From Asterionella formosa (Eukaryota), in the NCBI GenBank assembly GCA_002256025.1, contig NKIB01012322.1:1-64000 (forward strand): a DNA stretch of 64,000 nt. The letters are read 5' to 3'. The position numbers and the translations under genes are program-made. The notes beneath the pieces were generated by a model. The model had not been told where the DNA came from. It did no database searches and saw nothing but the letters and a program-made list of their open reading frames with translations. Numbering within the stretch: the first letter of the stretch is position 1; each line of letters begins with the position of its first letter. Shown piece by piece: positions 1-48,900 of the stretch.

Positions 1-127
1 ATCTAGCAGGAAGGCTAGAAGCAGAGACAAGAGAGAAAGTGAGTGGTACTAGGTAGTACTACGATCACGTAAGAGTCTACGTGAAGAGAGACCCAACCCG
101 CGGGAAGGAGTACGGACCATTTCAACA
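1..127. mobile_element. possible 3' end of an LTR fragment
   Basis: Non-coding stretch ending CATTTCAACA (118-127). It shares the ATTTCAACA terminus of the LTR at 54218-54417 but otherwise does not align with it. Confidence 0.3.
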
Positions 128-165
128 CCAGGTTAGACCTAGGAGTAGAGTACCAGGGTACCTGA

Positions 166-363
166 TGTTGAAATATATGGCGCTACTCTAGCGCGCTCCA
201 GTACTGCCCTGGAATGACCGGTCAAGATCTTTCTCACGCCGCTCGTCTGCAGATTCTTCTGCTATATAATTTAAATCCTGTCTATTTCCGTTTAGACATT
301 CCTCAGACTACCTAGTCTTCGGACACCTGTCGACATCAACAGCCTAACAGACACACTCTGACA
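166..363 (-). mobile_element. solo LTR (~200 bp) of an LTR retrotransposon
   Basis: Near-identical reverse complement of 54218-54417. Ends read TGTCAGA...TTTCAACA on the minus strand. Flanked by CCTGA at 161-165 and 365-369 (5-bp TSD, one extra A at 364). Confidence 0.7.
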
Positions 364-864
364 ACCTGATACTGTATCACCAGTTTTTGCATACGTACGG
401 TTAATCTGATCCATAATCCATACTACCTGGTACGGTTGTGTCGTAAATGTTACGGTACCTGGTACCAGGTACCCGATACTGGTCCCAGTAGACGTTATTA
501 CCGATGATACATAACGGTACTCATTCCAGTACCGGTAGACTAGTCCATAAAATTTATGTTGTATAACGGTAAATATTAGCTTGTATTTATTTTGTATTCA
601 ATGCGCGAAAATGTTGCTTCCATGCACACGCGGGAACAATGTATCATAGATCACATGCTCACCGCCCCGCCGGTATACAACAGTGTCCCCTCGGCCGATC
701 GTGATGCGTGTAGCCATGTAACCCATCACCACACCATGCAGCCACAATGACGATGAGTGGCGGGCAATATCGCCGGATTATCAGTCATTTCGAGCAAACC
801 AACATCCTCATTCCCCGCCGTTGCATGCATGACGACAAACTACGCAGTATACCGCTAATACAAT

Positions 865-3159
865 ATGAGCGAGGAGAACGACGAATATGCGCATGCAAGG
901 AAACTCGTGCTGCGAGCAACAAAGCGCAAAAAGCTTCTATCTGGAGGTGCTGACGAAAACGCCGATGGCTCCTTCAACGTCGTACGCGCAGACTTCTCGA
1001 ACCTTCCCCTTAAGCAAGATCACATACAGCGCCCTTGTTGGACATGCCCTGATGGAACTATTTATTTAGAAGCCTTTCACGATTTGTACACTCAAGCCTA
1101 TGATTTCTTGGTTGCCATTGCTGAACCCGTTGCCCGTCCAGAGTTTATGCATCAGTACAAACTCACGCCTTACTCGTTATATGCCGCCGTGGCCACTAAT
1201 ATTGATACCGAACGTATCATCGCCGTCTTGGAGCGGTTATCAAAGAATAAGCTGCCCAAGCAAATCAGGTCCTTCATTCAAGATTGCACGCAGAAATACG
1301 GAAAAGCCAAGTTGGTTTTAAAACACAATAAATTTTACGTCGAATCGGAATTTCCTATGGTTCTTCGCGAATTATTGCGTGACCCTACCATTGCGCAAGC
1401 CAGAGTCAAGGAAGATGTGAATACGGCCAATATCGATTCGGAAGGATTCGTCACGACCAACAAGGCCGAAGAAATGAAGGAGAATCTGAATATTCTCGAA
1501 GAAGACAGCGAAGATGAGGATAACGACGACGAAGAGAGTTCCTCCAAGAAACCAGCAACCGTTGTGAGTTTTCAAGTCAAAGGAGAAGCAGTCGAGTCGG
1601 TGAAACGTCAAGCTATCGAACTGGACTACCCCTTGATGGAAGAGTACGACTTTAGAAATGACAACATCAACCCAAATCTCCCAATGGACTTGAAGCCCCA
1701 CACTCGTATTCGACGCTACCAAGAAAGGAGTTTGGCCAAAATGTTTGGAAATGGACGTGCTCGATCTGGTATCATTGTGCTGCCATGCGGAGCCGGAAAG
1801 ACATTGACAGGCGTCACAGCAGCCCAAACAATTAAGAAATCAGTCGTCTGTCTTGCTACCAATGCAGTGTCAGTCTTACAATGGAAGCATCAATTTCAGT
1901 TATGGACTAACTTGCCTGACGATCGAATATCTGTATTCACCAGTGATCGCAAAGATCCAATTCACCCTGATGGATGTGTTTTGATCACCACCTACACCAT
2001 GATTTCGTATTCTGGCAAACGAGCCGACAAGTCCCAAGAAATTATGGATGTGATTTGTTCTCGTGAATGGGGTCTTTTATTGATGGATGAAGTACATGTT
2101 GTGCCCGCCAAAATGTTTCGTCGAGTAGTGGGAAGTGTCAAAGCGCATTGTCGATTGGGACTCACAGCTACATTGGTCCGGGAAGATGATTTGATTTCTG
2201 ATTTGAATTTCTTGATTGGACCGAAATTATATGAAGCCAATTGGATGGATTTGACTGCTCAAGGATTTTTGGCCAATGTGCAGTGTGTTGAAGTGTGGTG
2301 TCCGATGACTGGACCTTTCATGAAGGAATATTTGCTTGCTAAGAATGCTCGCCTCAAGCAGTTGCTGTACGTGATGAATCCATCCAAAATCAGAGCTGTT
2401 GAGTTTCTGGTTCGGTTTCACGAAGCACGTGGTGACAAGATCATCGTATTTTCCGATCTGGTCTACTCGTTGAAGCTCTATGCTGAAATGCTGAAGAAAC
2501 CACTGATATATGGCGAGACGCCAGAACGCGAACGTCAAGCTATTCTCGGAACTTTCCGTGCCTCTGACGCGTTGAGAACCATTTGCATTAGCAAGGTTGG
2601 AGACACCTCAATTGATTTACCAGAAGCCAATGTGATTATTCAAGTTAGTTCGCACTTTGGATCTCGACGTCAAGAAGCCCAACGCTTGGGACGTATTTTG
2701 CGTCCTAAATCCTTTACCGCTCGTGATGGAACGAACCGGTCAAGCTTCAATGCCTTCTTTTACACACTGGTCAGTAGTGATACTCAAGAAATGTTCTATT
2801 CCGCTAAGCGGCAGCAGTACCTTATTGATCAGGGATATACATTCAAAATTGTGACAAATCTTTGTGAAAAGGCGGACGAGGAAGCAAAGACGCAGAAGTA
2901 TGCTTTCGCAACACCCGAGGATGATCGCAAGCTTTTGCGAACGGTGTTGAACTCGGAGAATGACATGGAGAGGGAACAGCGAGCTGAAGATACAGCTATT
3001 CGCAAGAACAATGCCGATGGAGCAGCCTTGGCAGATGCCGGGGTGAAACGCAGCACTTCGTCGATGTCATCGATCAGTGGAGGTGCTGGTATGCGCTACC
3101 GCGAAATGGGAGGATCTAACAAGCGTCATCCACTTTTTCAGAAGAGAACTAGGCGCTAA
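865..3159 (+). CDS. XPB: TFIIH DNA helicase/translocase XPB (ERCC3/Ssl2)
   Basis: 764-aa ORF with FLVAIAEPVARP..YKLTPYSLYAAV, YPLMEEYDFRND, MFGNGRARSGIIVLPCGAGKT (Walker A), DEVH box and SSHFGSRRQEAQRLGRILR, all XPB-diagnostic. Confidence 0.97.
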   Translation: MSEENDEYAHARKLVLRATKRKKLLSGGADENADGSFNVVRADFSNLPLKQDHIQRPCWTCPDGTIYLEAFHDLYTQAYDFLVAIAEPVARPEFMHQYKLTPYSLYAAVATNIDTERIIAVLERLSKNKLPKQIRSFIQDCTQKYGKAKLVLKHNKFYVESEFPMVLRELLRDPTIAQARVKEDVNTANIDSEGFVTTNKAEEMKENLNILEEDSEDEDNDDEESSSKKPATVVSFQVKGEAVESVKRQAIELDYPLMEEYDFRNDNINPNLPMDLKPHTRIRRYQERSLAKMFGNGRARSGIIVLPCGAGKTLTGVTAAQTIKKSVVCLATNAVSVLQWKHQFQLWTNLPDDRISVFTSDRKDPIHPDGCVLITTYTMISYSGKRADKSQEIMDVICSREWGLLLMDEVHVVPAKMFRRVVGSVKAHCRLGLTATLVREDDLISDLNFLIGPKLYEANWMDLTAQGFLANVQCVEVWCPMTGPFMKEYLLAKNARLKQLLYVMNPSKIRAVEFLVRFHEARGDKIIVFSDLVYSLKLYAEMLKKPLIYGETPERERQAILGTFRASDALRTICISKVGDTSIDLPEANVIIQVSSHFGSRRQEAQRLGRILRPKSFTARDGTNRSSFNAFFYTLVSSDTQEMFYSAKRQQYLIDQGYTFKIVTNLCEKADEEAKTQKYAFATPEDDRKLLRTVLNSENDMEREQRAEDTAIRKNNADGAALADAGVKRSTSSMSSISGGAGMRYREMGGSNKRHPLFQKRTRR

Positions 3160-3579
3160 AAACATTCCAATTAGCAAATGAGAATAATTTATTTGAATGT
3201 TAACATCACGAGATTGTTGATTATGAGATGCGTTCCCTGAGGCACACCCAATATGCTTGAAAGTTCAGACTGAATGGGGATGCAGATCACAAATAGATCC
3301 ACTTTTCAACCGCATGGAAATACATAAACTGAGAATCGAATGCGAAGTCTGGACTTATAATGTTAACTTTTAAACTACTTTGTCCAGCCTTACCTAGACT
3401 AGTCAAACGAAATTAAGTCAGCAATTGATGCATGTATCCGATAAAAGCAATTTGAATGACCTCGCTCACCTAGGGACTACGAGTACCAGGTACCGTGTGT
3501 ATATAGTCTTTCGGTATGCATACGGCTGACGACAGACGTGTTCCGAAGTTCTTATGATAAGAAGCAATGCATTACTTCG

Positions 3580-3745
3580 TGGAGGTACCAGTACCAGTAC
3601 CCTGGTACATGGTACTGGTACCTGGTACTACCAGGTACCTAGTAACCAGGTACGAGGTACCTGGTACCTGGTAGTCACAAAAAGGTAGCAGATGATTGTG
3701 AACTACCGGTAGAGAAGTACCGGACCGGGGTACAAGGTACCAGAC
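3580..3745. repeat. TACCWGGTA/TACCGGTA motif cluster (densest of many)
   Basis: Runs such as GGTACCAGTACCAGTACCCTGGTACATGGTACTGGTACCTGGTACTACCAGGTACC just upstream of the LENG8-like gene. Confidence 0.8.
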
Positions 3746-3864
3746 CAGCAGAACGAAGCGGTAACACCATTGTCCTCAAAGAAATCAACCTAAGACAGCA
3801 AACATTGCTCGACAAACAGAAGATTTGTTGTTCTCCTACTGGTATCCTCACTCGCATTATCTTC

Positions 3865-5847
3865 ATGTACTCACAGTATCAGCAATACCGGCAACCGACT
3901 GCAACGGTAACGCAGCAGCCCGGCGTGGTCGTGAACAGCGCTTCGTTCCCAGTCAGCACCGTGCAGCAGCTTGCGACGCCCGTGGAAACTTACACTACCT
4001 ACTATAATGGCTGGACGGCCAGAGAAAAAGAGGAAACAATCAAGGCCAACACCTTGCACGGAGAACTGAAGGCTGAAGCCCAGAGGCAGGCTGCTTGGGC
4101 CAAGTATTATGCTGACCTGTCTAGTCGTGCAGCGCATCACTTTTACAATTCTCCTGGTGTCGCCTTTCCACATGGGGACTTACCACCAGCGCCCCCTGCG
4201 CCTATTCATTATCAGTCGCAACAATCCAGGCAAATCAATGCAATTCAACAACAGAGTCAATTTCAATTTCAGCAACAAACCTCAACTAATAGCGTTAATT
4301 CTACCTCAACACAGCAATCTCCTGATGGTCTCAAGCGGTATGTACACAGGTGTCTATCGAGATGTATTAACAAAGAGCAACTCCTAGATATGCAAAAACT
4401 TGTCGAAGAGCGAATTTCAGCCGCCTTGAATGCCGGAACTATGCACACCACCGATTGGGAGGAACAAGAATTGCTCCCGTTGAAGATAAATAGTAGTAAG
4501 TACACGAGTCAACCTACGCAAGTGCCATTGCCAAACCCGAAAAATTATTCCAGTGAAAACAATGGGGATTCTTCTTTTTCTCAGCCGGCAGCTCTCTCGA
4601 CCAGTTACTACGGCGAAAATAAGCAGCGAAATCAGACAGGAGATACAACCTATTATAGCTATTCAAATCCTACAAACGAAAGTAAGTGTGACCAAGCATC
4701 GTTGAGTGGTGATTTCATTGCATTTTCCAAAAAAGAGACAAAGGGGGAACGAAAGGCTGCCAAGCTTTCCATCAAATTAGAAACAGCCAAGAAAAAACTG
4801 GAATCAGCCAAGGCAAAGAAAAAGCGAACAGTTGATGATGCTTTGGGTTTTGAATTGTCAAATTCTGCCCTGGCTAAACGGGCTCATCGATTTGCTGGTG
4901 CAGGTGGTATATCGGAAGCATCAGCTGCGGGGTCATCATTGAATGGGGAGTATGCAAAATATATGGGGAAGTCTGTGATTGGAGGCTCAACGAAAGGAGA
5001 ATTGGATGAAGACGATTATGTCAGAATGACTGTCAAGGGTACGTGTGTGAGATTGGAAAAGGAGTATCTTCGTCTAACTGCACCACCAAAGGCCGAGTTG
5101 GTTCGCCCGCAAGGCATATTGGAAAAACACTTACAGAATTTACAAACTAGTTGGAATTCACCTGAACGTCGAGACTACGTCTGGTTTTGCTCGCAATTAA
5201 AGGCGATTCGACAAGACATGACTGTCCAGCGTATCTTCAATGGTTTTGCGGTACAGGTCTACGAGACACATGCTAGAATTGCATTGGAGCAAGGAGATTT
5301 AAACGAATACAATCAATGCCAAACTCAATTGAAGGAACTGTATACGAAGCAAGATAACAATGTGACCTTGACGAACATGAATGAATTCATTGCATTTCGT
5401 CTAATTTATTACGTACATCAGACTGGAAACAAGAAGTATGAAGGAGGATCGTCTGACTTGTTCAAGATTATGTTGTCACTCACTTTGGAGCAACGCGGAG
5501 ACCCCTGCATAGCTCATGCCCTCGAGGTTCGAGCTGCAGTTGCCGAATTTGATTATCATGCATTTTTCACTCTCCTTAAGGCGTGTCCGAGCAAGCATGC
5601 TACGTTTCTCATGAAATTTCTTGTCCCAAATGTTCGCTACTGGGCCCTGCAACGTATATGTAAGGCTTACCGTCCGTCTGTATCGTTGAATTTTGTGTTG
5701 CAAGAATTAGGCTTTGACTCCGATGGGGTTGAAAAAGGGAAAACATGGCTGGAGAGTTGTGGAGTGGTCATGACACAAGACGAAATTGTCACCAAGGACA
5801 CGGTTGTACACGAAAGCATCTTGAAGGCTCAAAACTCACTTATTTGA
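3865..5847 (+). CDS. SAC3/GANP/THP3-domain protein (LENG8/Thp3-like)
   Basis: KGTCVRLEKEYLRLTAPPKAELVRP, CSQLKAIRQDMTVQRI, VYETHARIALEQGDLNEYNQCQTQLKELY. Gln-rich N-terminus. First ATG at 3865; the ORF-track start is TTG. Confidence 0.9.
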   Translation: MYSQYQQYRQPTATVTQQPGVVVNSASFPVSTVQQLATPVETYTTYYNGWTAREKEETIKANTLHGELKAEAQRQAAWAKYYADLSSRAAHHFYNSPGVAFPHGDLPPAPPAPIHYQSQQSRQINAIQQQSQFQFQQQTSTNSVNSTSTQQSPDGLKRYVHRCLSRCINKEQLLDMQKLVEERISAALNAGTMHTTDWEEQELLPLKINSSKYTSQPTQVPLPNPKNYSSENNGDSSFSQPAALSTSYYGENKQRNQTGDTTYYSYSNPTNESKCDQASLSGDFIAFSKKETKGERKAAKLSIKLETAKKKLESAKAKKKRTVDDALGFELSNSALAKRAHRFAGAGGISEASAAGSSLNGEYAKYMGKSVIGGSTKGELDEDDYVRMTVKGTCVRLEKEYLRLTAPPKAELVRPQGILEKHLQNLQTSWNSPERRDYVWFCSQLKAIRQDMTVQRIFNGFAVQVYETHARIALEQGDLNEYNQCQTQLKELYTKQDNNVTLTNMNEFIAFRLIYYVHQTGNKKYEGGSSDLFKIMLSLTLEQRGDPCIAHALEVRAAVAEFDYHAFFTLLKACPSKHATFLMKFLVPNVRYWALQRICKAYRPSVSLNFVLQELGFDSDGVEKGKTWLESCGVVMTQDEIVTKDTVVHESILKAQNSLI

Positions 5848-6195: not shown

Positions 6196-8094
6196 TTACA
6201 CAGGAGCAGCTGCCGGTGCCGATTCTACTGGACCCGCGACAATAGTGAACATTGCACTCTTGGCAAAGGAAAGATTCGACCCCGTACCTCTCAACAAACG
6301 CATTAAATAGGTCCCAGCGTTCAGCTGAGCGAAGCCTGGCATTTCTGGACCAAATGAAATGGTTCCTCCTGAACTTGCTCCTTGACAGGTTTGAGTTCCG
6401 CAAGTATTAACCCACATGGCAGCAGTGAAGGTGCTACTAACCCCATTCGTCACGTCCTGCATAGCTATCCAGTCATTGCTCAGCGGTGGAATATTCTTGA
6501 AAGTGACGAGAATTTTTTCCCCTTGCATGTATGTGGACTTGTCGACTTGAATGGATGCATCGACAGTAGTAGTCGACGGAGCGATCAGTGTCAGTGACGG
6601 ACTTAGAGTTGATGGAGACAGTGTTGGCGATTCAGTAGAAAATCGAAATGGCGTGATTGTTGGCGGAACAAAAACAGTTGGAGACAACGTTGGCGGAACA
6701 AAAACAGTTGGAGACAACGTTGGTGGAACAAAAACAGTTGGCGGTATAGTTGGTGCCACAGAAGGACTCAAAGTTGCGGGTGGCGTTGTCGGCGAATCGG
6801 TTGGAGATGGGCTCGGTGGGAACGTAGGTGGTGGATTAGTTGGAGCAGGAGCACCCGGAGTCGGTGAATTTGTAGGTTTCAGTGATGGCTGAGAAGTCGG
6901 TTCATGTGTAGGATCTGGTGTTGCGGAGACTGATGTTACAGCAGGCGTCGGCACGTCTGTTGGTAGTGACGATGGTACGAGCGACGGATAGGGACTCGGA
7001 ATGGGTGTCGGGCTTAACGACACTATACTTGTGGGATCCAGAGATTTTGTATACGTCGGATATTGTGATGGCGAGAGAGTAGAACCCACAGTTGGTGTTC
7101 TCGTTGCATACGGAAATCTACTCTGAGAAGGGGAGAATGATACATCACCATTTGGCGCAGGAGCATGTGTATGCTTACTTATTGGCGTTGGCCGTGGCGA
7201 TCTAGCAGTGGGTGCATTTGTCTTTCGAAAGGGAGCAGCAGTTGGTGAGTTGGAAGGTACCGGAGAAAATTGACTGTCAGTGGGGGAAGTCGTATTTCCA
7301 TTGGATACTGGAATCATGGTGGGAGCTGGCGATGCCGAACCCGACTGATTAAGGGAGTTTACCATATTATTACCTCCAGACAATGAACTGTTTGGAGAGG
7401 TATTGTGACTCTTTTGCAGTGAAAGTGCAATGAATGTAGTCGACAAAACAACCCCCAGAAATAGAAGAAAAACAAAGGCGGCAAGCAGTCGACGACTGTA
7501 AGGTAAAGATAGGAAACTTGACATGCTTGTCGTGTCCCCCGACCCAAAGCCGAACCGTCGCGTTTGAGGGTGTTCGTCGCCACCGAGGTAAATGACGGAA
7601 GGCACATCTTTCGCGTTTGTCGGCAATGACTGGTGCAACGAGTTGGGGGCCACCACAAGGATCGCTCCGTTCCTTGGAGGCGCTGGAGGATGGTAGTCCA
7701 GGTGTTCGTTTTCCAACGAGAATCCATTGACGTTTCCTGCACTGCCTTTTGGTGAGCTCGTAGCGCTGGAGTCGAAAGTCGTATCAATGGTTGGCCCCGG
7801 GATCATTTTCGAAATTCTAGTTGCGTCGTCCTTCATACTATCACCTCCAGCAATAGTGTAGTTGTCGAGGGTTTTGCTGTACTCCTTCTCTGTTTCCATC
7901 ATGTAATCAAAATAGCTCTTGTTTGGGTCGTTGCCCCACAGAATTTGGTCCTCAAAGTAGACATCATTTGCGGCTTCGCTGACATTGACTCGTCGCTCAT
8001 TTTCCCTTTGAGCTGTGAAGGTGGTCGACACTGAGTGCTGCGAGTAGCCTTCCCAGTCAGAGACTGATCGATCTTCGTCCTTGGATAATGACAT
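6196..8094 (-). CDS. type II membrane protein with Pro/Ser/Thr-rich stalk and C-terminal Ig/SKICH-like domain
   Basis: First ATG at 8094 (MSLSKDED). One hydrophobic segment LLAAFVFLLFLGVVLSTTFIAL, long PT/PS stalk, then DKSTY..GEKILVTF..NDWIA..MWVNTCG..GTISFG..LNAGTY. Domain name is tentative. Confidence 0.72.
   Translation of the reverse strand: MSLSKDEDRSVSDWEGYSQHSVSTTFTAQRENERRVNVSEAANDVYFEDQILWGNDPNKSYFDYMMETEKEYSKTLDNYTIAGGDSMKDDATRISKMIPGPTIDTTFDSSATSSPKGSAGNVNGFSLENEHLDYHPPAPPRNGAILVVAPNSLHQSLPTNAKDVPSVIYLGGDEHPQTRRFGFGSGDTTSMSSFLSLPYSRRLLAAFVFLLFLGVVLSTTFIALSLQKSHNTSPNSSLSGGNNMVNSLNQSGSASPAPTMIPVSNGNTTSPTDSQFSPVPSNSPTAAPFRKTNAPTARSPRPTPISKHTHAPAPNGDVSFSPSQSRFPYATRTPTVGSTLSPSQYPTYTKSLDPTSIVSLSPTPIPSPYPSLVPSSLPTDVPTPAVTSVSATPDPTHEPTSQPSLKPTNSPTPGAPAPTNPPPTFPPSPSPTDSPTTPPATLSPSVAPTIPPTVFVPPTLSPTVFVPPTLSPTVFVPPTITPFRFSTESPTLSPSTLSPSLTLIAPSTTTVDASIQVDKSTYMQGEKILVTFKNIPPLSNDWIAMQDVTNGVSSTFTAAMWVNTCGTQTCQGASSGGTISFGPEMPGFAQLNAGTYLMRLLRGTGSNLSFAKSAMFTIVAGPVESAPAAAPV
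6659..6741. repeat. coding 30-bp tandem repeat (~2.8 copies)
   Basis: Unit GTTGGCGGAACAAAAACAGTTGGAGACAAC at 6659, 6689 and 6719; encodes PTVFVPPTLS. Confidence 0.9.
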
Positions 8095-10189
8095 GATGTC
8101 TTCAAACAATGAGATTTCTGAAATTTTGTCGAACCTATGTATACCGGTACCAGGTACCAGGTAGTTTGTACAAGTCAGTGCACACTTTCGGGGACTGACT
8201 TGATTTTGAACATGAAGAAACAGGACATGAACAAACAATTGATTTGTGTGTACCGGCTATCGTACTGTCATATCATACATGGGGTAGGCAAAGTGTGAAT
8301 TCAGTATTCCTATGTTTAATTGTGTACCTGGAGCAAAGGTTCTGTACACTACAACGCAGATATGGTGTCCTGAGCTTTGAGTCTTGACTAATTTGTATTC
8401 ACATCCGTGCCTACTACCGGTACACCAGTGCGTATTCCCGCGATGATGGAGGGAAAGGTACCAGGTGCATGAGTACCGGTATGTAAGCTATAGCTGGTAC
8501 CAGGTACCCGGTATACTAACTACATAAAACATCAGCAAGGGGGATCACAAGCAAGAACACGTTGCGCGCAAACGGGACTAATAAAGGGCACGATGTAACA
8601 TCCATTTCAAACCAGACCCGGTAAATTTGAATGATCATACTTCATGTGCTATGATATACATAATTCGATTCGTTTTCATTTGATGATATTGAAATGTACA
8701 TAAGTCAAAGAGAGGTATCCATTATTACAAACGACTCCATGTAACGGTATACATAGAGCAGGCGAATCGGAAGACTGAGTCGTGCGATCCGACAAGGAAT
8801 ATTCTTAAATATACATATGTACATGGAGTGACTTAGAAAACACCGGGAACTAAAACAGCACCCCACACATAAAACGTAAAACCAACAGCATCATGGGTTG
8901 CGCTAGCTGTATCTGGTACATCAGGCAGGCAGTACATGGTCAACCAGGTAAACCTACAGTGTTAGGAGTACCTGGCGCCAGTCGGTACATCTGGCACAAC
9001 AACCATCCCGGTTTGTATGTATTCTTAGTGTTTTATATAGACATATTTGGATCATCTTTATCCTATACCAGCATATATATAACAATTTTGCTGGTATAGC
9101 ACAAAACACAATTGATAGGGTATAAATACAGTATTCAGATGAATGAAGCAAATGCTGCACCAGTCAAAAGTGAATTGATAGCTGAAGGAATGTTGGAAGC
9201 TTGTGCAAGGCAGCATGATTGATTTGCTGGTAATCAAAAAGGATAGAAGAAACACATGGATGGAAGCATTATATTGATGATAGCAAGCAAGGGAGCAAGG
9301 TATTACCAGAGCTGGCATCAACTTGTTCTGAGGCAGTGTAATTGATTGAAATTGAAGTGTTGACAGGCTTAGACAATACATTATTGTGCAATACGTGATG
9401 AAAAGATGAATCTGATGGTAGATTAGGAGTCAAGAGAGGAGATACTTAGATTTTTCTTGACAACAAGGAAGTGATATACCTGCCTTTGGTGCCTGATGGA
9501 AGAGAGTGTGGACAGCAGCAATAGAAAGCAGAATTTTCGAACTTCCGGAGGGTCTGGGGGTCTTCCAGATGAATATGAGAGAGAAGTGGATGTGGTAGAG
9601 AGGAGGGGAAGGTTATGGGAGAAGGAATAAGCATTCATTTGATGAATAGGATGTGAGAAGTAGTCGGCAACGTCCTTTTCTCTGGAGGTAAAGGGCGGTT
9701 TCTGCTGTGGAGGAACCAGCAGGTATAGCAGAGCAATATGATTCTGGATTGCTAACCACAAAAGTGGCAATGATGCAAAGGAAGAAAAAGATAGTATGAA
9801 CGTTTTGATGATTGGAACCATTAAATATCTGGCAGTATGGTCCATCTAATTTAACAACCGAAAACATTATATGGAGCGACTGTGATTCTATTTATATTAT
9901 AATTATGATAGTTACATTTGTTATTCTATTTCACTTGAAATATTTGAGTAAGCGGCCAATATAAAACAGCATGGTGAGGATATGTAGATGAACCAAATGT
10001 ACTAGATATGTATGTTAAATTGGTTTCGAATATTTATTTACATGCTAATAATTCAATGACAGAAGCAGTAAAAATGTTCACATAAAAACTGATTTTTCGA
10101 GTCATCCAACAACCCTCACGTAGAAAAATGTTTTGTTGTCCATGTAATCCGTCCTAGAAAAAGCTGCTCGGCACTAGGGGTTTCCGAAA

Positions 10190-10221
10190 ATCGATGCAAC
10201 TAATATTGGACAGAGGGAGTA
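10190..10221 (-). mobile_element. Stowaway/mariner-like terminal inverted repeat with flanking TA
   Basis: Reverse complement reads TA|CTCCCTCTGTCCAATATTAGTTGCATCGAT. A matching end TA|CTCCTTCCGTCCGATATTAATTGCATCGAT is at 56777-56808. Confidence 0.55.
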
Positions 10222-10228
10222 CCAGGTA

Positions 10229-10450
10229 CCAGCAGGCTGCGGTGGTAAATTTGCTGAAATGAGGATTTGGATATCGCGGATATTCACGCCTGCTGATCCA
10301 GTACTTAAATAAATACACTGCCTAGCTCATGGGACAACAGTTATATTTCATTCATGGTATGATCGTTTTGAATACAATTATGCTGGAATACGATTTGGCA
10401 GGAACTATTTTAGGGTAAAACTCATTCCCAAAATCTCAAACCCCCAACTC
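10229..10450 (+). mobile_element. MITE family B copy (TA|CCWGC termini)
   Basis: Aligns by eye with 57197-57400 (CCTGCTGATCCAG, TATGCTGGAAT, GTRAAACTCATTC) and with the reverse complement of 20430-20575. Confidence 0.6.
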
Positions 10451-11695
10451 GAAAAAACATGGGTTTTACCAGAGAGCTTGATTCCATTGGGGTCAGAGGC
10501 GCACATAGAGTGATCATAGAAAATGTTAACCGACCGACATTGAGTGTACATATATTAGTCTATGCAAAGACTAAACATGTATGGTAATATATGCATACCG
10601 ACATAGACGATGCAGAAAATATGTAGTCTCTACATTCCCGAATACATTATTTACTAGTTAGTGCCGTTGTATGTATACTGAAATGATAAAATAAATAAAC
10701 ATCATTGTTATTGTTGTTTTCAGCTACTGATGTTGTATTTATGTCTACTTTATTTACAACGGTTATGTACGAGCAATCCGGGTTTTGATCTCCTGGCAAG
10801 AAGTCAAGGAGATATTGTTGCTGTGGTCATTCATGCGTCATTTTGCTTCCGCCGATTTTCTGTTTTACTTATTTTGCAATGAATATCCAAGCTACTATGT
10901 GAACATTTGTTTCACTAGTATTTTCTAGCGATATATAAATTTTATCTAACAAACTATTTAAAGTGTAAATCAGTTATACAGATTTAACAACCATTTGTTT
11001 CTTATCATAGTCTGTTATAATGGTAATTCTTGGGAATTTCCATTGTTCGATTCATTGCATTTATAAATATGTGCACATAGAAAAAGCCTGTTACCGGGGG
11101 TATGTATGTTCATTTGTACCACCACCGTTTGCACTTCTGTACATTCATAGTATGAAATGCATGTAGCTAAATGAGGAGATTTCTGGAATAAGGAATCATG
11201 ACACTCAGAAGCGAGGTTGGGGAAAACCCAATCCGAACCCCCCAATCGAAAAAACCCAAACATAGCTAGCAAGGTTCGGATATCCATCAGATCATGAAAG
11301 TGTCCCAAAACATATAATAATATCTTATCAATAATTCCCTAATTTTGTTGTCAATATCCTGTTTGTTAGGTCACCGACACTACCAAAAGCACCACCATTG
11401 TTGATCAGCTGATCAATTTAACATTGCTAGTGATTTCTCGTGTTATATTGTGCTAGAGGGATATTTCAATGGCCGATTTTTCCAAAATAAGCAAGGAGTA
11501 ACATAAAGTACTATAGGTATTATTAAGAGGCTCCACTAAATTTTCAGCGAAACTCGAAGAAGTACTACCTACCAGTATGCATATGAAGCACAGGCTAAAA
11601 CAACCCGGCTTTTACAAACGTTTTACTACATACGGCAAAGGTTGCTTGTGTTGTCGGTATACCCTTGGAGCTTCTCATATACCTCGGACTCGTCA

Positions 11696-11892
11696 TGCTG
11701 AAGGCAATACACGCCCGAGGTGGTCTCATGCCTGCGAGTATACATGTGTTCGAGGCTGGGTGGCGCGAGTAGGTTTACCGTGCGAGTGGCGCCCCTGGCG
11801 CTGTGAGAAGGTCACCCTACGAGTGCCATCCCAGTCGAGTACACATGTGTACGAGAAGGCATGTAGCCACCGAGAAGGGTATTGCTGAGGCA
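11696..11892 (+). other. long imperfect hairpin with periodic CGAG/CGAG internal motifs (candidate structured RNA/ssDNA element)
   Basis: CGAG at 11716, 11735, 11751, 11766 and 11783; loop CCT at 11794-96; YGAG at 11804, 11820, 11836, 11852, 11871 and 11886. Intervening segments pair across the loop. Confidence 0.8.
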
Positions 11893-13430
11893 ATTCACAA
11901 ACTAGCTAACGTCGCGCCATTTGCTTACCTCCTGCCCACTCTTTGAGTGTAAATGTCAATTTTAGCTTGTTGCTATAGCCCATCATATAAAATATATTTC
12001 CTATCTTCACATCGAAATTTGCAATGGGTACAATATTGCCCATCATTAAAATACATTTTGAATATTTCCTATGTTCGCATTTTGGCATTACAACTTGTAG
12101 CAATTGCCCCTTGGTTGTCCAGCCCTGGGATTGCCGAAATTGGCAAGGGGTCTACTTAAGGAAACCATTTTATATACTTTACAGATTTCACTGAATGTGA
12201 TCGTAGAGAGTAGTACTAATTGTCGAATTTCCGATTTGATTGCTTCCGTGGTTTGTTTTGATCGCTTCCATCGTTGTTTGTCATTCCGCACTGTCGTTTT
12301 GTTTCGATTGTATCTATCTACATAAGAACCAATCTATTTATCGATGACTACTCTTTGACGACGTATTGTGGTTATCGACATGTCATTTACCATGATGCCA
12401 ATATTGCCGCCAAGCAATGCTTTTCTTGTACCAATGCGCTTTGCTACATTTCTACTACGAGTTCGTATCACAAGCTACATAAATACTCAGCTAGAGAGAT
12501 TCAATAGTGCTGGAGCAGCGTGGCGATCACGCTTGCTCAGAATGGAATGATCAGGGTTGCTTGTTGCTTTGGTGGGCAGAGAGGAATGACTGTGGCGGAA
12601 ATACTGCTACTGGCTGGTGTCAGGCTACTACAGCGATACGCATGGCTGCAGCAACCAGACCGTTTACGCTACATAACAATGCAGGTCTAAATTGGGTTCA
12701 ACTTTTTTTCTTCTTTGGGTCTTCGATTGTGTGGTGATGGAAAGTCAATTTTGCCTGTGTAAGTACTACAATGATTCACAATGCATACGTCTCCATTGAA
12801 ACTACTATTTTTTACTTCATTTCTAACCCAAAACAATTTTTTCTCTTTCTTATTTGATGCAACTCATTTCATCGCATTTCATACTTTGGTTGCTCCAAAC
12901 ATCATGTTCAATTTTCATTGATGTTGCATGTTATTGCAATCATTCTCGTGTGTTTTACGCTTGTTGTACCATCTCCATACCGTTACTCGGTCTGCCATGC
13001 TAAAATCGGCAATTTTATTGCCGAAAAATTCGATGTGCCCCATATTGCCCCTAAATAAAATTTACCGTACTTTAGAAATTACTTAGAGCCTAAAGCACCC
13101 GAATGGCAAGACAATACCGGTAGCTGGAGCGGGAATTGCTACCGGTACTGGTGGTATAATTATTTTTTTAATCACATGTCGTATACAGAAACAACCTGCG
13201 ATGTCACACTGACACAAGACTCATCTTTCACTTTCGAGCTTTGGTAATGAAAAACGACATGGGATGAGAGAAATGAGTTTTCGCATGTTGACACGGATTT
13301 GAAGAATTTTGAACTTTTTTGTGAGCGAGGCAGTAACTAGAATGCTGAAGGGCTCATTGGTTTGGTCCTGTGATTGGAAATGCTCGGGATTCTTCCTTTT
13401 CTCATTTTTCTTTGCACAAAACTCACAACA

Positions 13431-14477
13431 ATGTCAGGTGAGGACGGCAGCCCAAAAATGATGAAAGCAATTGTTTACGGCAAACCAAATATACAGTTCA
13501 AGCTCAAGCCAATCCCCATTCCCAGTCTCCATGAAACCCTGGTTCGAGTTTTCGCTGCAGGTCTAAACCCAGTCGACGCCAAAGGCGTTGTCGGAGACAA
13601 GTTTCCACACACTTGGACGACACTACGGTACATGTCTGATCGAGCCATTGCCGGTAGGACCATTGGGTTTGAATTTTCGGGCCAAGTAGTGGATTGTCCG
13701 TCCAACAAGTATCAACCCGGTGACGAAGTCTATGGCAGTATGCCGCCCTTAGGTGGGACGTTGTCGGAGTATATATGTGCACCACTGGATCAAATTTTTC
13801 GGAAGCCTGCAAAGCTGACTCATGAACAAGCTGCCTCCTTGGTATTGGTCGGGATGACAGCAATTCAAGCCTTGCGGCCTGAATTCGACAAGGGGTGCTC
13901 GTCAATTTTGATTGTGGGAGCTAGTGGAGGGACTGGACATGTTTCCGTGCAAGTCAGCCGCTGTTTGGGAGCATCGATGATTGTAGGACTGTGCTCGGCC
14001 CGGAACACTGAATTCGTCAAATCGTGTGGAGCTACTCATGTCGTCAACTACAATTCTGACGATTTCTTGGAGAAGCTACACCGGCTGGGCCCGTTTGACG
14101 TGATTTTTGATTGTGTCACTTCGTCAGATCCACAAGATTACCAATTTATGTATCCCAAGAGGCTTTTGCCCATCTGCACACAAAGATACCTTCGCTTGGG
14201 AGGCACTTCGATAGAATGGTGGAAAGCTGGGTGTGAGAGAATCTTTGGAGGGAACTGGTTTGGCAAGGAAAAACTCTTTTGGATTCGATTTCCTAATTCT
14301 AGCCAAGATTTGAAACAGCTAACCGAGTGGTCAGAACAGTTGAGACTAGTGCCAAAAGTGAGTACATTTATAAAGTTTACGCCAGTTGATGTCCAAGATG
14401 CATTTGACCAAATCAATAACCGGCGAGTTAAAGGAAAACTTGTTGTAGTCATTGTCCAGAGTAACAAAATCATATAA
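13431..14477 (+). CDS. MDR-superfamily NAD(P)H quinone oxidoreductase-like protein (RTN4IP1/zeta-crystallin-like)
   Basis: LVRVFAAGLNPVD, IGFEFSGQVV, QPGDEVYG, GTLSEY, ILIVGASGGTG (Rossmann), VKGKLVV. First ATG at 13431. Confidence 0.9.
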   Translation: MSGEDGSPKMMKAIVYGKPNIQFKLKPIPIPSLHETLVRVFAAGLNPVDAKGVVGDKFPHTWTTLRYMSDRAIAGRTIGFEFSGQVVDCPSNKYQPGDEVYGSMPPLGGTLSEYICAPLDQIFRKPAKLTHEQAASLVLVGMTAIQALRPEFDKGCSSILIVGASGGTGHVSVQVSRCLGASMIVGLCSARNTEFVKSCGATHVVNYNSDDFLEKLHRLGPFDVIFDCVTSSDPQDYQFMYPKRLLPICTQRYLRLGGTSIEWWKAGCERIFGGNWFGKEKLFWIRFPNSSQDLKQLTEWSEQLRLVPKVSTFIKFTPVDVQDAFDQINNRRVKGKLVVVIVQSNKII

Positions 14478-14716: not shown

Positions 14717-17236
14717 TCATTTTTTAGGCCTGAATACATCGCCGTTTGTGTACCGTTGGACTGCTGGCATGGTAGAATCAGTCCATCCTAGCACTCGCAG
14801 TGAATAATGACCAATTAAAATAGCTTCATGGGCATCCACTGACAGCTTTGCAGACTCATATTCGGTTCCAACCAAGAATTGTTTTGCAATCAGAGACGCT
14901 GCTTCCTTCGCTTTGTATGCATTCATTTGCTCTCTTTTCAGAAGGAAATCTTGTCGCCAATCGTCAGCAATAACCCTAGCCAGGTTCACATTTCCTGGTA
15001 GTTGTTCAATAGCCTTCTTCCATATATTGAAAAGCTTTCGATCTTCACCTTCGATGACCACATCTGTAACACCACTCTTGATAATCAGGTCATCCAATCC
15101 TTGTTTCAAGGCATCATGGTCATTAAAACGGCAACTGTCTACTCGTATGATTTTGCCGTCTTGGTCAAATAGTGCAGCCCCGGTACGAAGGCCCAAATCA
15201 ACAGCCAACAATCTTCGAGGTTTGCTGGAATCAGCACCATTTGAATGGCCCGCAATCAAAGCATCTAATGAATCAGGCCTCATCAACTTCGCAACACTGC
15301 GGAGCATAGTACCCCCTTCGATTGTCGAAGCAGCCCACTCCGACACGGTGTAATCTTCTCCTTCCCGTTTCTCCACAAAATCAATGAGAATAGGTCCATT
15401 GACAACTCGATTGGCTTTACCAGAGTTAGCATTTGCCGCATTCACCACCCAAGTGCTATCAATTGTAGTTCCGGGACGGGGAGGTCGGGCTGAAAAGGCA
15501 TGCTGGACAGCGCCTCGCCCCTCATGAATATGTCCACAAAGCCATAGAGCAGGCTTTGCTTGAGAAGACTCCACACAAGTACGAAGGGGCACAGATCCCG
15601 CCCGTTGATTGTGGTAAGTGTAGTCCAATATTCCGTACGGAGGTTCATGACTGATGAGAATATCGCAGTTCGGTGGCATCAACACGTCATTTCGGGTTCT
15701 TGAATGGGGTCGGAGGGCAAGAACAATGCCTCCTTCCAATTCCATAGTCATTGGTGCTGTAACAAATAATGCTTGGCTTCGGGGAAACAGGGCACTGCCT
15801 GGCATTCTAGGGTCGTGGTTACCTCGAACAACGATCTTTGTTGGAATGTGCGTTTGAGCTGCCAGGAAGTTATCCAACCCATTCCTGTTGGACCCAGCAT
15901 GACCGTGGAAATCTCCACAATGAATCAAAATATCCGCTGGTGGAAGTTGGTATGGACTCAGCTCGATTTCTCCGTATGAATTGTAATCCACGTATTGGAA
16001 AAGCTGGTTTTCGCAACCGTGGGTATCTGAAATGACAACAAGGCGGAGTGGACGAGAAAGAGGATTACCCCCGGATCTGTGTCGTGAAACCACCAAAACA
16101 GAGGAAGAAAGCTCGTGACCATCCATAGTGTTTCGCGCCATTTTGATGTCAGGATTATTGAATCGCTGTCCACTTTGGTGCGGGTTGTCTGCTAACTTCT
16201 TTACCATTATTGTGAGTTTGTTCAGAACGGACGAGGCTCCGTAATCTGTCGATGTTGTTGCGCCCGCTTCTGCCAATCGTCTCCGCAGCCGTTCCGAAAG
16301 TAACTGTCGTTCGTACGTTGTCTCTGTTCCCCGTCGTATTTGTTGTTTGGACGTTGCCTCTATGCCCTTGACCGCGGCATCTAGTTGTTCCATGTCTCCG
16401 CCTTCTACAACTGCCTTGAGGTTAGGCGTGCCAGTCCGAAGTGATATTTCCAAGACCCCATCGAGGCGTTCTCTGGCCTTGTCTCGTCTAACTATCAACT
16501 TGGTTCGTTGCTTGCGAGAGACGCCTTTGCCGCTGCTCTTGTTTCCACGACGAGGATGAAGCAATCGATCGAGCAGCTGCAGTTCTTGCCTAACTGCAAC
16601 TTCTTTCTGCAGCAAACGAGACGAATCGAGACTTTCGTCGAGATTTGGTGGTCCAAGAAGCTCTTCTACCGATTCAAGGCCCTTGAGTTGATCCATGTAC
16701 TTGACGGGATCAATAAATGAAAGATCAATGGTCGACCTTCCCTTGATAGCCTCCGTGCATCGGTTCATCAGTTCATTATCACTCGTAACAACAATTGTCG
16801 TGTTCCTTGTGCTCCGTACCATGTTAACAATAGTATCGTCCGCTTTCTCCGCGGTTCCTGAAAAGACAACTGCCACTTGTTGGCCTAGTGGGCCTCCAAC
16901 TTGAATAGTGCCATTGGCTCCATGGTCTACCACAAGAACCATCAAGTGCGACGGGTCTTTTGCTGCAATGGCCTTGGCCAAGAGGGATTCGTGAGAGCAC
17001 TTGAAGTTGGACTTGCCTCTAACGTTTTCAGTATCCACGAGAAACAGAATGGCATGTTGCTCGAGACTTTCCTGCACAACTACCGGTATCGGTGGCGCAG
17101 ATTCGACGCTGACAAATCGAGTATGAATCGACAGCGATCTTGCTGTCCAAGGAGCAAAGCAAGTTCCACCTTGCAACAAGTATGCTAATATGAGAAACGG
17201 TCTCGTCCTAGCAGTCACGGATTTAAGGGTTCTCAT
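14717..17236 (-). CDS. three-domain fusion: YacP-like NYN/PIN nuclease + calcineurin-like metallophosphoesterase + RuvC/RNase H-fold domain, putatively plastid-targeted
   Basis: NYN: FLVDTENVRG, VVDHG, EKADDTI, VVTSDNEL. Phosphoesterase: ISDTHG, IHCGDF, RGNHD, SHEPPYG, CGHIHEG. RuvC-like: LLAVDLGLRTG, VVIEG, VDAHEAILIG. First ATG at 17236, then a hydrophobic signal and GTC|FAP. Confidence 0.85.
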   Translation of the reverse strand: MRTLKSVTARTRPFLILAYLLQGGTCFAPWTARSLSIHTRFVSVESAPPIPVVVQESLEQHAILFLVDTENVRGKSNFKCSHESLLAKAIAAKDPSHLMVLVVDHGANGTIQVGGPLGQQVAVVFSGTAEKADDTIVNMVRSTRNTTIVVTSDNELMNRCTEAIKGRSTIDLSFIDPVKYMDQLKGLESVEELLGPPNLDESLDSSRLLQKEVAVRQELQLLDRLLHPRRGNKSSGKGVSRKQRTKLIVRRDKARERLDGVLEISLRTGTPNLKAVVEGGDMEQLDAAVKGIEATSKQQIRRGTETTYERQLLSERLRRRLAEAGATTSTDYGASSVLNKLTIMVKKLADNPHQSGQRFNNPDIKMARNTMDGHELSSSVLVVSRHRSGGNPLSRPLRLVVISDTHGCENQLFQYVDYNSYGEIELSPYQLPPADILIHCGDFHGHAGSNRNGLDNFLAAQTHIPTKIVVRGNHDPRMPGSALFPRSQALFVTAPMTMELEGGIVLALRPHSRTRNDVLMPPNCDILISHEPPYGILDYTYHNQRAGSVPLRTCVESSQAKPALWLCGHIHEGRGAVQHAFSARPPRPGTTIDSTWVVNAANANSGKANRVVNGPILIDFVEKREGEDYTVSEWAASTIEGGTMLRSVAKLMRPDSLDALIAGHSNGADSSKPRRLLAVDLGLRTGAALFDQDGKIIRVDSCRFNDHDALKQGLDDLIIKSGVTDVVIEGEDRKLFNIWKKAIEQLPGNVNLARVIADDWRQDFLLKREQMNAYKAKEAASLIAKQFLVGTEYESAKLSVDAHEAILIGHYSLRVLGWTDSTMPAVQRYTNGDVFRPKK

Positions 17237-26949: not shown

Positions 26950-28110
26950 AGAATCAACAACACTGATGACCATATCATAGTGAATTAATAAATAAGAAAA
27001 TAGAAGGAAAACACGCACTTTTCAATCAACAAACAGTTTATTCTGGACTGTCACAAAGCCGGAATAGGATCTGGTGATGCAGACATTGTTTATTGATACG
27101 CCATGAACTTATCAATTGCATTTGGATTTTGTTACATCCAAACAAAGTTATTTCACTTCCATAGACAAGCTGGTTGACAAGGCGGAAGTGGCAAGCACAG
27201 CTCTTGCTATGGAAGAGGCTTGTCGGTAAGAATTTATATCAAACACCAATATGCATTAACGAGGCGATTGGGCTGAAAAAGGACGAGGTTTACATTGGTG
27301 AAACAGGCTACCTGGTACAGACCACTTGTCCTTAATAAATATTCAACAACTCACCATTTTTTATAATATGGGCTGGCAACAGCGAGCCAGTGATAAGTAC
27401 AACTCTGCAAGTGGACATGCGTTTTGTATTGGTGGCTGCATAAGAAAGAAACTAGACTATCGAGTAAAATCGAGAGTCGGTAATGTGTTCAACAGAGCTA
27501 TCTGGTACAAGAAACCAATTAAGCAGCATTCTTGCCCCAAAAATCATGTAACTGGAAGTTCAAAGGAAATGGATCCAGATGCAGGTGTGGAAAGTATGGT
27601 TGATGCAGATTCATGTACACTGTTATCCATTCTACAATCATCTGTGATAATGATTCATCTATTAGAGCTTTTTCAAAATGGTCCTATAAAGAATTATCAA
27701 ATCTATAGCCTGAGTTTCAATGGCCAAGAACACTGAAAGGAAAAAACCCGAGAAATGATGCCTTCCACTAAATGTTCCAGAACCAAGGTTTCTTTCCGAT
27801 CCATCTCACAAGGTCCGCATTCTCCTTCTCCCTACCTTCCTGAAACCCGATGGCCCAGTTTGTTTAGAATGCTATTCAAAATCAGATTGTCTCCGACTAA
27901 AGATTTATTACAGCGGCTGCCTAGATGAAGAAAAACCAGAACCTCTCTGACTGAATTCACTGAATCATCCAAGTAGACCGCACCAATCAACCACTTGTTT
28001 GGCTGCCATCATGACTATTGTTCTGAGAAATGGTGTCTTGTAAAATCACAAAAAAATGTGAGCAATGGAATATATCACTGCATGAAAATGGAAAGTGAAT
28101 TTTTTGATTG
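26950..28110 (+). pseudogene. degenerate Mutator-like transposase
   Basis: Across frames: INKQFILDCHKAGIGSGDAD, NMGWQQRASDKYNSASGHAFCIG, HSCPKNHVTGSSKEMDPDA, ICDNDSSIRA, EPRFLSDPSHKVR. Multiple stops and frameshifts. Confidence 0.7.
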
Positions 28111-29380
28111 GTAAATTTTGAATGTTGTAACAAAAGTAGAAGGCGAAAGCTGCTCTAATTGGCAGGATCTGGTGGCCTTCAACTCGAAAACGCTGTTTAC
28201 GGCACTTATTCGAATTTATGTCTAAAGTTAAGTATTTATGTTACTTTTCTAAAATATTAGGTCACTTTTTTGGATTTTTTTGTGTCAAACCATAATTTAT
28301 ATGTACTAAAACAAAATTTATTTCACTTATCGAATAATTATGTGTTCAAACCAATAATTATGTGTATTAGCAAAAACATTTTTTACTAACTAGCTATCAC
28401 GCTGACAGTATAATGTCAATCCCCAACCTAGCTACTGTCGTGCTGTTCGATGAGAGCTGTAGGTGTCTAAGAAAATTTTGGTATCTCTAAGTAGTTTTAC
28501 TTGTATCTCTAAGTAGTTTAATTTAGGGGCAAATATAGGGGCACAGTGGATTTTTCGGCAGTTCAATTTTAGGTTTGAGCAGGGACCATAAAGCAATGTC
28601 AGGAGAAGAATTTTAATGCAGGAAGAAAATTTTAGAAATCAAGCAATAGATGGCCCATCAAGAAAAAGTACTAGATGCCACATCAAAATTGAACGGACCA
28701 CTGAATACTGGTTGTTATCTGCATGAAAAATGGTCATACAAAAATGATTTTAACAAGCATCAAAAATTTCGACACGATGTTGCTAAACAACCAAAGTATG
28801 AAGCAGAAATCGAAAGGTAATGCGTGACAATGACAAGTAGGGAGAATAAAAAGTGAAAAAGAAAATGGTTCAGTGGAAAAATGGTGCTGATGTGAAAAAT
28901 TGTCAATGCATTTTCATTAACCATTGTCAACTCACACATTTTTGTCGTAGCAACGAAATTTCAGAAATGTTCAGTTCGGGCCTGGAGGAGCAGAAACCGA
29001 TGCATGAATTGATTTTGAGGGAGTGCTGGATTGTGGAGGAGTAGGTGTTGTTGTTGGATGAGCAACAGCTTGATAGTGGTAGGTTTGGTGGTGAAGGTGC
29101 AGACTGCTGGTATTATCCGGCAGGAGGAGGAGCAGGATCCGTCGAAAAATATATTGGCTGATTTCTGCGGTGGTGGCTTGGTATCATTAGAAGGACAGGT
29201 TTGAGAAGGATGATAGGGAGCAATTGAGGGATATGTTGTTGGTGCTGGCGGACATGTGTTTCCGACATAGTTTGCATCCTGGTGACTTTGCAATCTTGGT
29301 GTTTATATTAAAGGTGGCTTGTTATGATTGGAAAACAAGAATGAAATAATGGAAGTTTGCATATATTATACCTCGTAAAA

Positions 29381-47720: not shown

Positions 47721-48450
47721 CAGGAGACTATGATGTAAAACAGTGAAAGGGAAACGCGGAGCCTTTTGCGGCGCTTGTGGAGGTGCAACTGGTGTGATGG
47801 TAACCAAGTGTAGTAATTGTTGAACAGAGCACAGTGTGATATGCATGTTCCGCCAGCGTAGTGTTTGCACAATTCATATGCAGGTACATATAGCTATAAC
47901 AAGGAAAAACGACATGACAATGAACGTGATGGCTGGTTGTTGAGGATACCGGTTTGTGATATGCATCAATCCATATCACAAATCATATTATAGTGATGTA
48001 CATATCAACGCATCCATATACTTAGATCCTATCCACCATAAAATACTATCATATTAACTGTTGGCTTTTACTGTATACATTAAAAGTCGAATTTATATAT
48101 TAAGTAACATAATTATGATTTATTTATTTATTTTCTGTGATGTATCAATAACACTTGCGTACATATTTACATTTTAAGAAATCATCACAGTTCTATGAAC
48201 AATGTATCATAGTTATGTGATATACTTTATTCAATATTATGTATCATACTTTGGTGATGTATGCATCGATGTAAACCTATCATGATATCACATTATCATC
48301 TTATCAATCATGATGAGATGATTGGGAACTGTAGTATTCTGCATCGAACTACGGAGTATGATATTATAACACGCACTTTAGTAGCTAAGTCACTCCTGTA
48401 ATGTACACAAGTTGACAGTGCACGAAAACACGTACACACATGTTAATCAG

Positions 48451-48900
48451 GTTTGAGGCAACGGACAGTGGTTCCAACGAGCAAATGACGATACCACGGG
48501 TACCAATTTTTCCAGCGGCAAACCGCAATGATGAAGGACACTTGTCCCTCTATTGATAAGGATGACACGGACACCGACTTTTCCAGGAGCAAACAACAAT
48601 GAAGAGACCCACTTGTCGCTCTATTGATGGTAACAAAGATGCGGACAAGTTCAACAGTGAATACAAGAATAACATACCAATGAAAACAAGTCGGCAGTGT
48701 GTGTACGCACACGCCAAGCAGGTTTGAGGCAACGGACAGTTCCAACAAGCAAATGACAAAACGGATATCAAATATTTCCTACAAGCAAACAACAATGAAG
48801 AGAGCCACTTGCAGTCGCTCTCTTGATGGTATCAAAGATGCGGAAAAATTCAATTGTAAATACAAGTACAGCATGCCAAATGCAGAAACGAGCGACATGA
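48451..48900 (+). repeat. diverged ~270-bp internal duplication in the transposon's right arm
   Basis: GGTTTGAGGCAACGGACAGT at 48451 and 48721; AAACAACAATGAAGAGA...AAAGATGCGGA also occurs twice. Mirrored at 61500-62030. Confidence 0.7.

Follow-up and report, generated by a model that had tools for sequence, protein, structure and literature searches.

The described transposons that come closest to the locus reported here are the HLE2 elements (Helitron2, Helentron, HINE/DINE-1), whose layout is given in PMC3627910, PMC4067079 and PMC11417382. In these descriptions, only one of the two inverted repeats is terminal, the partner being subterminal and placed beside a terminal stem-loop, and insertion takes place between T and T, no target-site duplication (TSD) being made. 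They also tell of joined ends or tandem copies, of non-autonomous copies far more abundant than autonomous ones and of associated microsatellite-like repeats. Bao and Jurka proposed for Helitron2 (PMC3627910) that the ends are recognized by the pairing of both repeats. Circles with joined ends, as well as elements with a 5' hairpin alone, are mentioned in PMC5148889. A variant called 'HLE2-reverse', in which the element begins with T and the stem-loop stands upstream of the left repeat, is described in PMC11417382 for FoHeli3-5 and for the Phytophthora proto-Helentron. The published dimensions are small, with stems of 5-10 bp or palindromes of 16-20 nt (PMC3627910, PMC4067079) and inverted repeats of 8-16 nt (PMC3627910, PMC11417382).

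The sequence examined here lies at 11696-11892 of the window, that is, of the whole 64,000-nucleotide stretch of DNA that was analysed and to which all coordinates refer. It forms a single rod of 197 nt. We favour, with a confidence slightly better than even, the view that this rod forms the stem-loop at one terminus of a DNA transposon that is non-autonomous, present in many copies and built on the HLE2 (Helitron2/Helentron) layout, corresponding on the + strand to the 'HLE2-reverse' or proto-Helentron type. The term HLE2-like is used for the architecture of the element and falls short of a proof of membership. The best reading of the rod itself is that of a strand-selective single-stranded-DNA signal of a non-autonomous transposon of the rolling-circle type.

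On the + strand the rod folds around the loop CCT (11794-11796). Its minimum free energy (MFE) with RNA parameters was -107.6 kcal/mol (z = -8.7), a value that none of 200 shuffled sequences equalled, compared with -84.3 (z = -5.2) for the - strand. With DNA parameters, the values were -48.3 for the + strand and -42.2 for the - strand. Nine G-U pairs are formed on the + strand of the window rod and two on the - strand. Helices of 7-15 bp alternate with tandem G·A loops. The MFE structure contains five 2x2 loops of CGAG facing CGAG, the innermost being CGAG/TGAG, and a further, outer purine loop in which TGAAG (11699-11703) faces TGAG (11886-11889), which makes six purine loops in total. The motifs of the 5' arm (11716-11786) are five CGAG starting at 11716, 11735, 11751, 11766 and 11783, with gaps of 19, 16, 15 and 17 nt. 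Opposite them in the 3' arm (11804-11874), a TGAG starts at 11804 and four CGAG start at 11820, 11836, 11852 and 11871, with gaps of 16, 16, 16 and 19 nt. The stems, the CCT loop, the spacing of the motifs and the strand-specific folding had all been claimed in the initial annotation, and each was recovered here.

CGAG is found nine times in these 197 nt versus 0.45 expected from its 147 occurrences in the 64-kb window (Poisson P of about 1.5e-9). All six purine loops have an identical polarity and the same pyrimidine-GA-purine context, YGAR facing YGAR. NMR and thermodynamic work has established that, in RNA as in DNA, tandem sheared G·A pairs are favoured where 5'-YGAR-3' faces 5'-YGAR-3'. 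Tandem sheared G·A is known as an isolated motif; to our knowledge, no periodic array of it in a transposon end is known. A literature search for such an array found none, a result that does not prove absence. In the literature searched, no rod of such length with tandem G·A loops at periodic intervals is described; the kind of element that carries it is known. None of the other CGAG clusters of the 64-kb window is a hairpin, and those at 16371-16770 and 27272-27484 correspond to coding or ordinary sequence. It was concluded that the rod is non-random and that the + strand is favoured.

A side observation concerns the second helix (11739-11750 / 11840-11851), which is made of two near-identical self-palindromes (TAYACATGTGTW) that are direct as well as inverted repeats. 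Some contigs jump from 11734 to 11836 (101 nt), a deletion expected from recombination between the two TAYACATGTGTW palindromes.

Related copies were collected by a pattern scan of metagenome contigs, which gave five loci. Two of them, L001 and L005, hold the complete rod and about 300 nt beyond it, with 88% identity overall to the window copy; L002 holds only the first 65 nt of the rod and has a different flank. The loci L003 and L004, which matched by chance over 25 nt, were discarded, and pattern scans of viral contigs returned no match. Among the three complete copies (window, L001, L005), the identity of the rod was 94.9, 93.9 and 98.0%, compared with 83.3, 82.8 and 88.7% for the following 300 nt or so. 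Since the related copies keep the rod better than its surroundings, the rod looks selected as a single-strand structure. The folding energies of the three copies were -107.6, -111.5 and -109.6 on the + strand and -84.3, -83.8 and -83.4 on the - strand, and the number of G-U pairs per copy was 9-10 and 2-3, respectively. In addition, the six purine loops, including the outermost TGAAG loop, are kept in 3/3 complete copies.

The 71 base pairs of the rod were then compared over the three copies: 62 are invariant, six show a change on one side, one is compensatory (columns 33/167, A-U to U-A) and two are broken. The six one-sided changes are all exchanges between G-C and G-U or between A-U and G-U, which are neutral for the + strand and leave the - strand mismatched. 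The covariation test on these three copies was not significant, the observed value being reached in 144 of 500 shuffles. This pattern is compatible with structural conservation without proving it. The excess of G·T pairs could come from a strand-biased C>T mutation instead of selection; if the cause were C>T damage to a strand frequently exposed in single-stranded form, this would still indicate the + strand.

The majority of the contigs assembled from public runs differs from the window at four positions of the rod. At 11776, T>G creates a G-C pair; at 11804, T>C converts TGAG into CGAG (25-44 contigs per run); at 11885, C>T changes a G-C pair into G-U; and at 11782, G>A affects an unpaired position. 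Peptides predicted on further copies, which are indirect samples of these copies only, carry residues mostly compatible with the motif, the nucleotides inferred from them being ambiguous. Apparent losses of a single motif were found in P0001 (site 8), P0002 (site 6), P0003 (site 7) and P0058 (site 8). An apparent minus-strand open reading frame (ORF) in the tails of L001 and L005 was set aside, its amino-acid identity not exceeding the neutral expectation.

The position of the rod within a repeat was established with contigs of public runs aligned over 10800-12800, one run being an RNA library (X15) and three being DNA (X2, X4, X5). The runs in which the stretch occurs carry the labels of algal and freshwater metagenomes, X15 being a metatranscriptome. 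From bin 11604-11670 to bin 11671-11737, the summed contig depth rose from 230 to 84,646 in X2, from 24 to 4,175 in X4, from 7.5 to 1,007 in X5 and from 4.3 to 5,629 in X15. The depth thus steps up at 11696 by about 100- to 1300-fold across the four runs, and it stays high through to 12800. Directly before 11696, unrelated sequence was found in 56 contigs of X2 and 35 of X4, with a consensus agreement of 0.35-0.37. On account of this depth step and of the unrelated sequences that precede 11696 in dozens of contigs, the rod is the left terminus of a dispersed high-copy repeat that ends at 13139. The TGTCGG at 11652, put forward earlier as a possible LTR start, falls in the unique flank and outside the repeat, which starts at 11696. 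An X2 contig that spans 11492-11722 without differences, and is single-copy, has a depth of 72; set against the depth of the repeat in the same run, this corresponds to roughly a thousand copy-equivalents, a rough figure since summing depths does not count copies and some of the contigs may stem from other organisms.

The right-end region (12719-13139, 86% identity to L001) happens to be an open frame, and a search with its peptide gave 54 proteins. Over all three protein searches, the end of the element is present in 41 proteins, in which the similarity stops after the C codon of ...AATTGC. This C residue (TGC codon) is found in 38 of the 41 peptides and Y in none, and the residue that comes next is of 12 different kinds. 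In five of the 41 the sequence after the right end is the rod in reverse complement, so that an inverted right-end copy of more than 200 nt adjoins the rod there; in a single case, that of L001, the rod comes next in direct orientation. In L001, the homologue of window 12719-13139 stands directly upstream of the rod, which is a head-to-tail junction, and a second junction of this type, from a diverged subfamily, was seen in the peptide P0001.

The 28 nt that follow the rod (11890-11917) recur in inverted orientation at the right end, in the last 30 nt of the element (13110-13139), which finish with AATTGC. In the window copy this subterminal repeat has decayed. The L001 fold crosses the junction and gains two helices of 13 and 10 bp, formed with the right end of the preceding copy, by which the rod is extended to about 245 nt. 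With DNA parameters, the junction fold reached -77 kcal/mol (z = -10.2) on the strand equivalent to the + strand of the window, versus -70.3 (z = -7.6) on the other strand. The two extreme termini of the element are not inverted repeats of each other.

TGC is present at both boundaries, at 11696-11698, where the depth jump and the loose ends of contigs mark the limit, and at 13137-13139. The left TGC may still belong to the target, as its final three bases, or may already open the element. Eight left junctions were compared, four in DNA (window, L001, L005, L002) and four inferred from peptides (P0001, P0027, P0058, P0060). The trinucleotide was TGC in six of them and TAC in two. Because the left end has TGC or TAC and the right end never has TAC (0/41), the boundary TGC is not a target-site duplication. 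AT precedes the left TGC in three of the four DNA junctions and in the consensus of the loose ends. Insertion takes place either after an ATTGC-like target that resembles the right end of the element, or between T and TGC. A T|T insertion holds when the element is taken as TGC...GGGAAT and fails when the left TGC is counted as target. No TSD of 4-11 nt was found around the window copy, the sole copy with both ends and both flanks; a 9-mer candidate at 13218 matched at 7/9 positions (2 mismatches), which is at chance level (about 0.4 expected), and was rejected.

The left-junction 10-mer ATGCTGAAGG (11695-11704) is met again at 13342-13351, about 200 nt past the right end and just upstream of the ATG of a dehydrogenase gene, where the rest of the rod is absent. 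This second ATGCTGAAGG could be a target-like site, a footprint or a chance occurrence. The right-flank peptides P0005 and P0054 start with W-R-I, which would fit the first bases of ATGCTGAAGG if TGA were read as W, as in P0006. The latter, a protein of the L001 contig, reads the TGA directly after the right end as W, which indicates that TGA was decoded as W when genes were called on this contig; proteins predicted on contigs of this kind are to be used with care.

Between its two ends, the element measures about 1.44 kb in the window copy (11696 or 11699 to 13139). The internal part at 11918-12188 is conserved across the family, with 88% identity to L001 and L005, and is rich in ATTGCC/GGCAAT, nine of the 37 occurrences in the window being inside the element. 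The window copy shows a rearrangement at 12189-12381, where the sequences of L001 and L005 take another course and most members carry another sequence, the contigs having loose ends behind 12188 and before 12382. The depth remains high over this segment, which is itself repetitive. The right flank (13140-13165) contains degenerate GGTACC-type 7-mers. Similar GGTACC(W) arrays occur in the left flanks of L002 and L005 and in eight of the 41 right-flank peptides, and one seems to be inside the rod in peptide P0059. They could be a preferred target, a tail borne by the element or a common microsatellite of the genome. A diverged copy of the right-end region only was noted at 28417-28802 (- strand), with about 77% identity over 68 nt and a weaker similarity further on; it ends with GGGGATTG. 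No rod was found near it, and the self-comparison of the window gave no second rod.

The window comes from an intron-poor eukaryote, with uninterrupted ORFs for XPB/RAD25, a SAC3 protein, importin alpha, a zinc-type dehydrogenase and others. The rod is placed in a 5-kb intergenic gap, with genes at 6196-8256 and 13380-14477 on either side. On the left is a 632-aa ORF (6196-8094, - strand) with long repeats rich in Pro, Thr and Ser (PTxSPT) and a single hydrophobic stretch by prediction. Pfam gave no match for it, and its appearance is that of a mucin-like or cell-surface protein. A 144-aa frame at 27302-27733 (+ strand) matches a Mutator-like transposase (PF20700, E = 8.9e-14, profile positions 150-234 of 357) and is annotated as a decayed MULE fragment. 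Furthermore, a repeat of about 320 nt is present three times (44272-44611, 49253-49569 and 60835-61174), two of the copies being direct and 4961 nt apart, and a 1.4-kb inverted duplication links 47836-49255 with 61149-62700 (89-98% identity). Together with an RVT_2 (copia-type) fragment at 49793-50665 and gag/Pol pieces at 37326-38473, they represent remnants of LTR retrotransposons.

When the element is set beside the HLE2 layout, the asymmetric inverted repeats are found, 11890-11917 pairing with 13110-13139, and the stem-loop lies at the expected place between the subterminal repeat and the terminus. Joined, head-to-tail copies, such as a circular intermediate would produce, are found as well (L001 junction, P0001). 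The lack of a TSD around the one complete copy, the abundance of non-autonomous copies and the microsatellite-like repeats beside them also resemble the features given for HLE2 in the descriptions cited above, and on the + strand the stem-loop stands upstream of the left repeat and the element begins with T, as in the 'HLE2-reverse' type. Other features speak against HLE2. The stem-loop, with 197 nt (about 245 nt over the junction), is far outside the described range; its six regularly spaced tandem G·A loops and its bias to one strand differ from HLE2; and the repeats are of 20-28 nt, exceeding 200 nt in some copies (the five peptides of 41 with a long inverted right-end copy). The T-T insertion of HLE2 agrees with the present element under only one of the two placements of TGC given above. 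The autonomous partner that mobilises HLE2 elements encodes a Rep protein (HUH, two tyrosines) fused to a helicase; no such Rep/helicase (RepHel) domain was found in the 88 ORFs of the window (Pfam scans of 10, 55 and 23), the transposon matches being limited to the Mutator-like fragment and copia pieces.

Two other systems are similar in their way of working. The IS200/IS605 elements (HUH Y1 transposase; IS608) have imperfect, strand-specific terminal hairpins, make no TSD and insert beside a short specific sequence, the bases at the foot of the hairpin being complementary to the cleavage sites. The rod may be likened to them, an analogy of mode of action and not of membership; IS200/IS605 elements belong to prokaryotes and carry a short hairpin at either end, and no Y1 gene was seen here. 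The integron attC site is a folded single-strand recombination site of 57-141 nt, bacterial and used by a tyrosine recombinase, in which mismatches choose the strand. By analogy, the boundary of our element would likewise fall inside a stem, the hairpin being complete only in a circle or array. However, attC has extrahelical bases where the rod has tandem G·A pairs.

From these features we infer the following mechanism, in which the enzyme would be of the HUH/RepHel type. During rolling-circle-type transposition, the + strand would become single-stranded. Only this strand would fold into a stable rod, by means of its tandem G·A loops and G·T wobbles, because its complement has C·T/T·C and A·C mismatches instead. 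From the rod, the transposase could then tell which strand and which end to act on, and in this way the rod would take part in the choice of the strand. The foot of the rod (GCAATT...) could pair with the right end (AATTGC) and with the ATTGC-like bases found ahead of most left junctions, the pairing with the target being suggested by the eight junctions examined. In a circle or tandem, both termini would be brought side by side in one continuous stem, which might serve as a splint for cleavage and joining.

The same features might also belong to a eukaryotic single-strand DNA transposon that possibly forms a lineage separate from the Helitron-like elements, in which the rod would act as strand-selective handle and its foot (GCAATT...) as a DNA guide to the right end and to ATTGC-like targets, so that a eukaryote would employ a logic akin to that of IS200/IS605 or attC; we regard this as unlikely. 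An equally unlikely candidate is a Crypton-like or other double-stranded-circle element that a tyrosine recombinase (YR) exchanges at an ATTGC/TGC core, the rod being accessory. It would account for the TGC, mostly ATTGC, at both boundaries, for the lack of a TSD and for the head-to-tail junctions, and Cryptons, according to PMC3212892, have terminal direct repeats of 4-6 bp and occur in diatoms and oomycetes. The same paper describes them without inverted repeats, however, and the present element has both an inverted repeat and a terminal hairpin. Furthermore, the right flanks differ directly after TGC (the 12 kinds of next residue), which leaves no overlap homology of 6-8 bp; a strand-biased fold would have no role in a double-stranded exchange, and no YR gene is among the 88 ORFs of the window. 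A cut-and-paste transposon with terminal inverted repeats (TIR), MULE-like or foldback, with long structured repeats and a one-ended or decayed copy in the window, is decidedly improbable. The five peptides in which the long inverted right-end copy adjoins the rod would suit such an element, as would the subterminal enrichment of ATTGCC/GGCAAT, and the Mutator-like fragment is only about 700 nt from the diverged right-end-like sequence at 28417-28802. Yet this fragment is outside the diverged copy, the complete copy has no TSD of 4-11 nt, and the inverted repeats of a MITE or TIR element at the extreme ends are missing, TGC itself not being a TSD.

We consider it improbable that the rod acts as RNA, in the form of a hairpin transcript of the element that would be processed into small RNAs, serve as a guide-type RNA or direct the packaging or priming of a retroelement. 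The difference between the strands is greatest with RNA parameters and contigs of the metatranscriptome X15 cover the element, but these contigs equally cover the unique flanks, with a flank-to-repeat ratio like that of the DNA runs, and such coverage does not demonstrate transcription. With Rfam 15, no match reached the gathering score in the whole window, and none was obtained over the rod at E up to 10 (10000-14000), self-cleaving ribozymes included. Thus, no RNA family described in Rfam matches the rod, and the stand-alone non-coding RNA gene once considered for it has to give way to one end of a repeat of about a thousand copy-equivalents. The packaging-signal or LTR hypothesis fared no better: the locus has no LTR pair, no tRNA-related or primer site, no poly-A tail and no linked reverse transcriptase, the tRNA scan of the window gave 0 genes, the window contains no second copy of the repeat, and the 4-6-bp TSD of a solo LTR is missing. 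Moreover, the 5' boundary is sharp and the copy number highest at the terminus, unlike in the 5'-truncated copies of LINE-type elements. What stands of the proposal of a selected RNA or single-stranded-DNA structure is its second half, which fits a single-strand structure that looks selected. Lastly, a neutral palindrome, with a motif pattern due to chance or arising as a by-product, is most improbable. Inverted duplications are common in repeats, but chance would hardly give the CGAG excess and the single polarity of the six purine loops, and the rod is more conserved than its neighbourhood, all the one-sided changes keeping the + strand pairing.

The HLE2-like transposon end, which we prefer, removes a tempting false lead, as the rod is neither a new non-coding RNA nor a viroid-like rod. 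The design of this transposon end is unusual: the long hairpin is interrupted at regular intervals by tandem G·A pairs and by no other regular defect, an arrangement that lets one DNA strand fold well but not the complementary one. Should the rod indeed serve in strand choice and as a splint, this family would offer a natural system for studying how eukaryotic rolling-circle-type transposases read the structure of single-stranded DNA. The rod would also be an annotation marker for a repeat that makes up perhaps a megabase or more, as a rough figure, of the genome of this freshwater alga.
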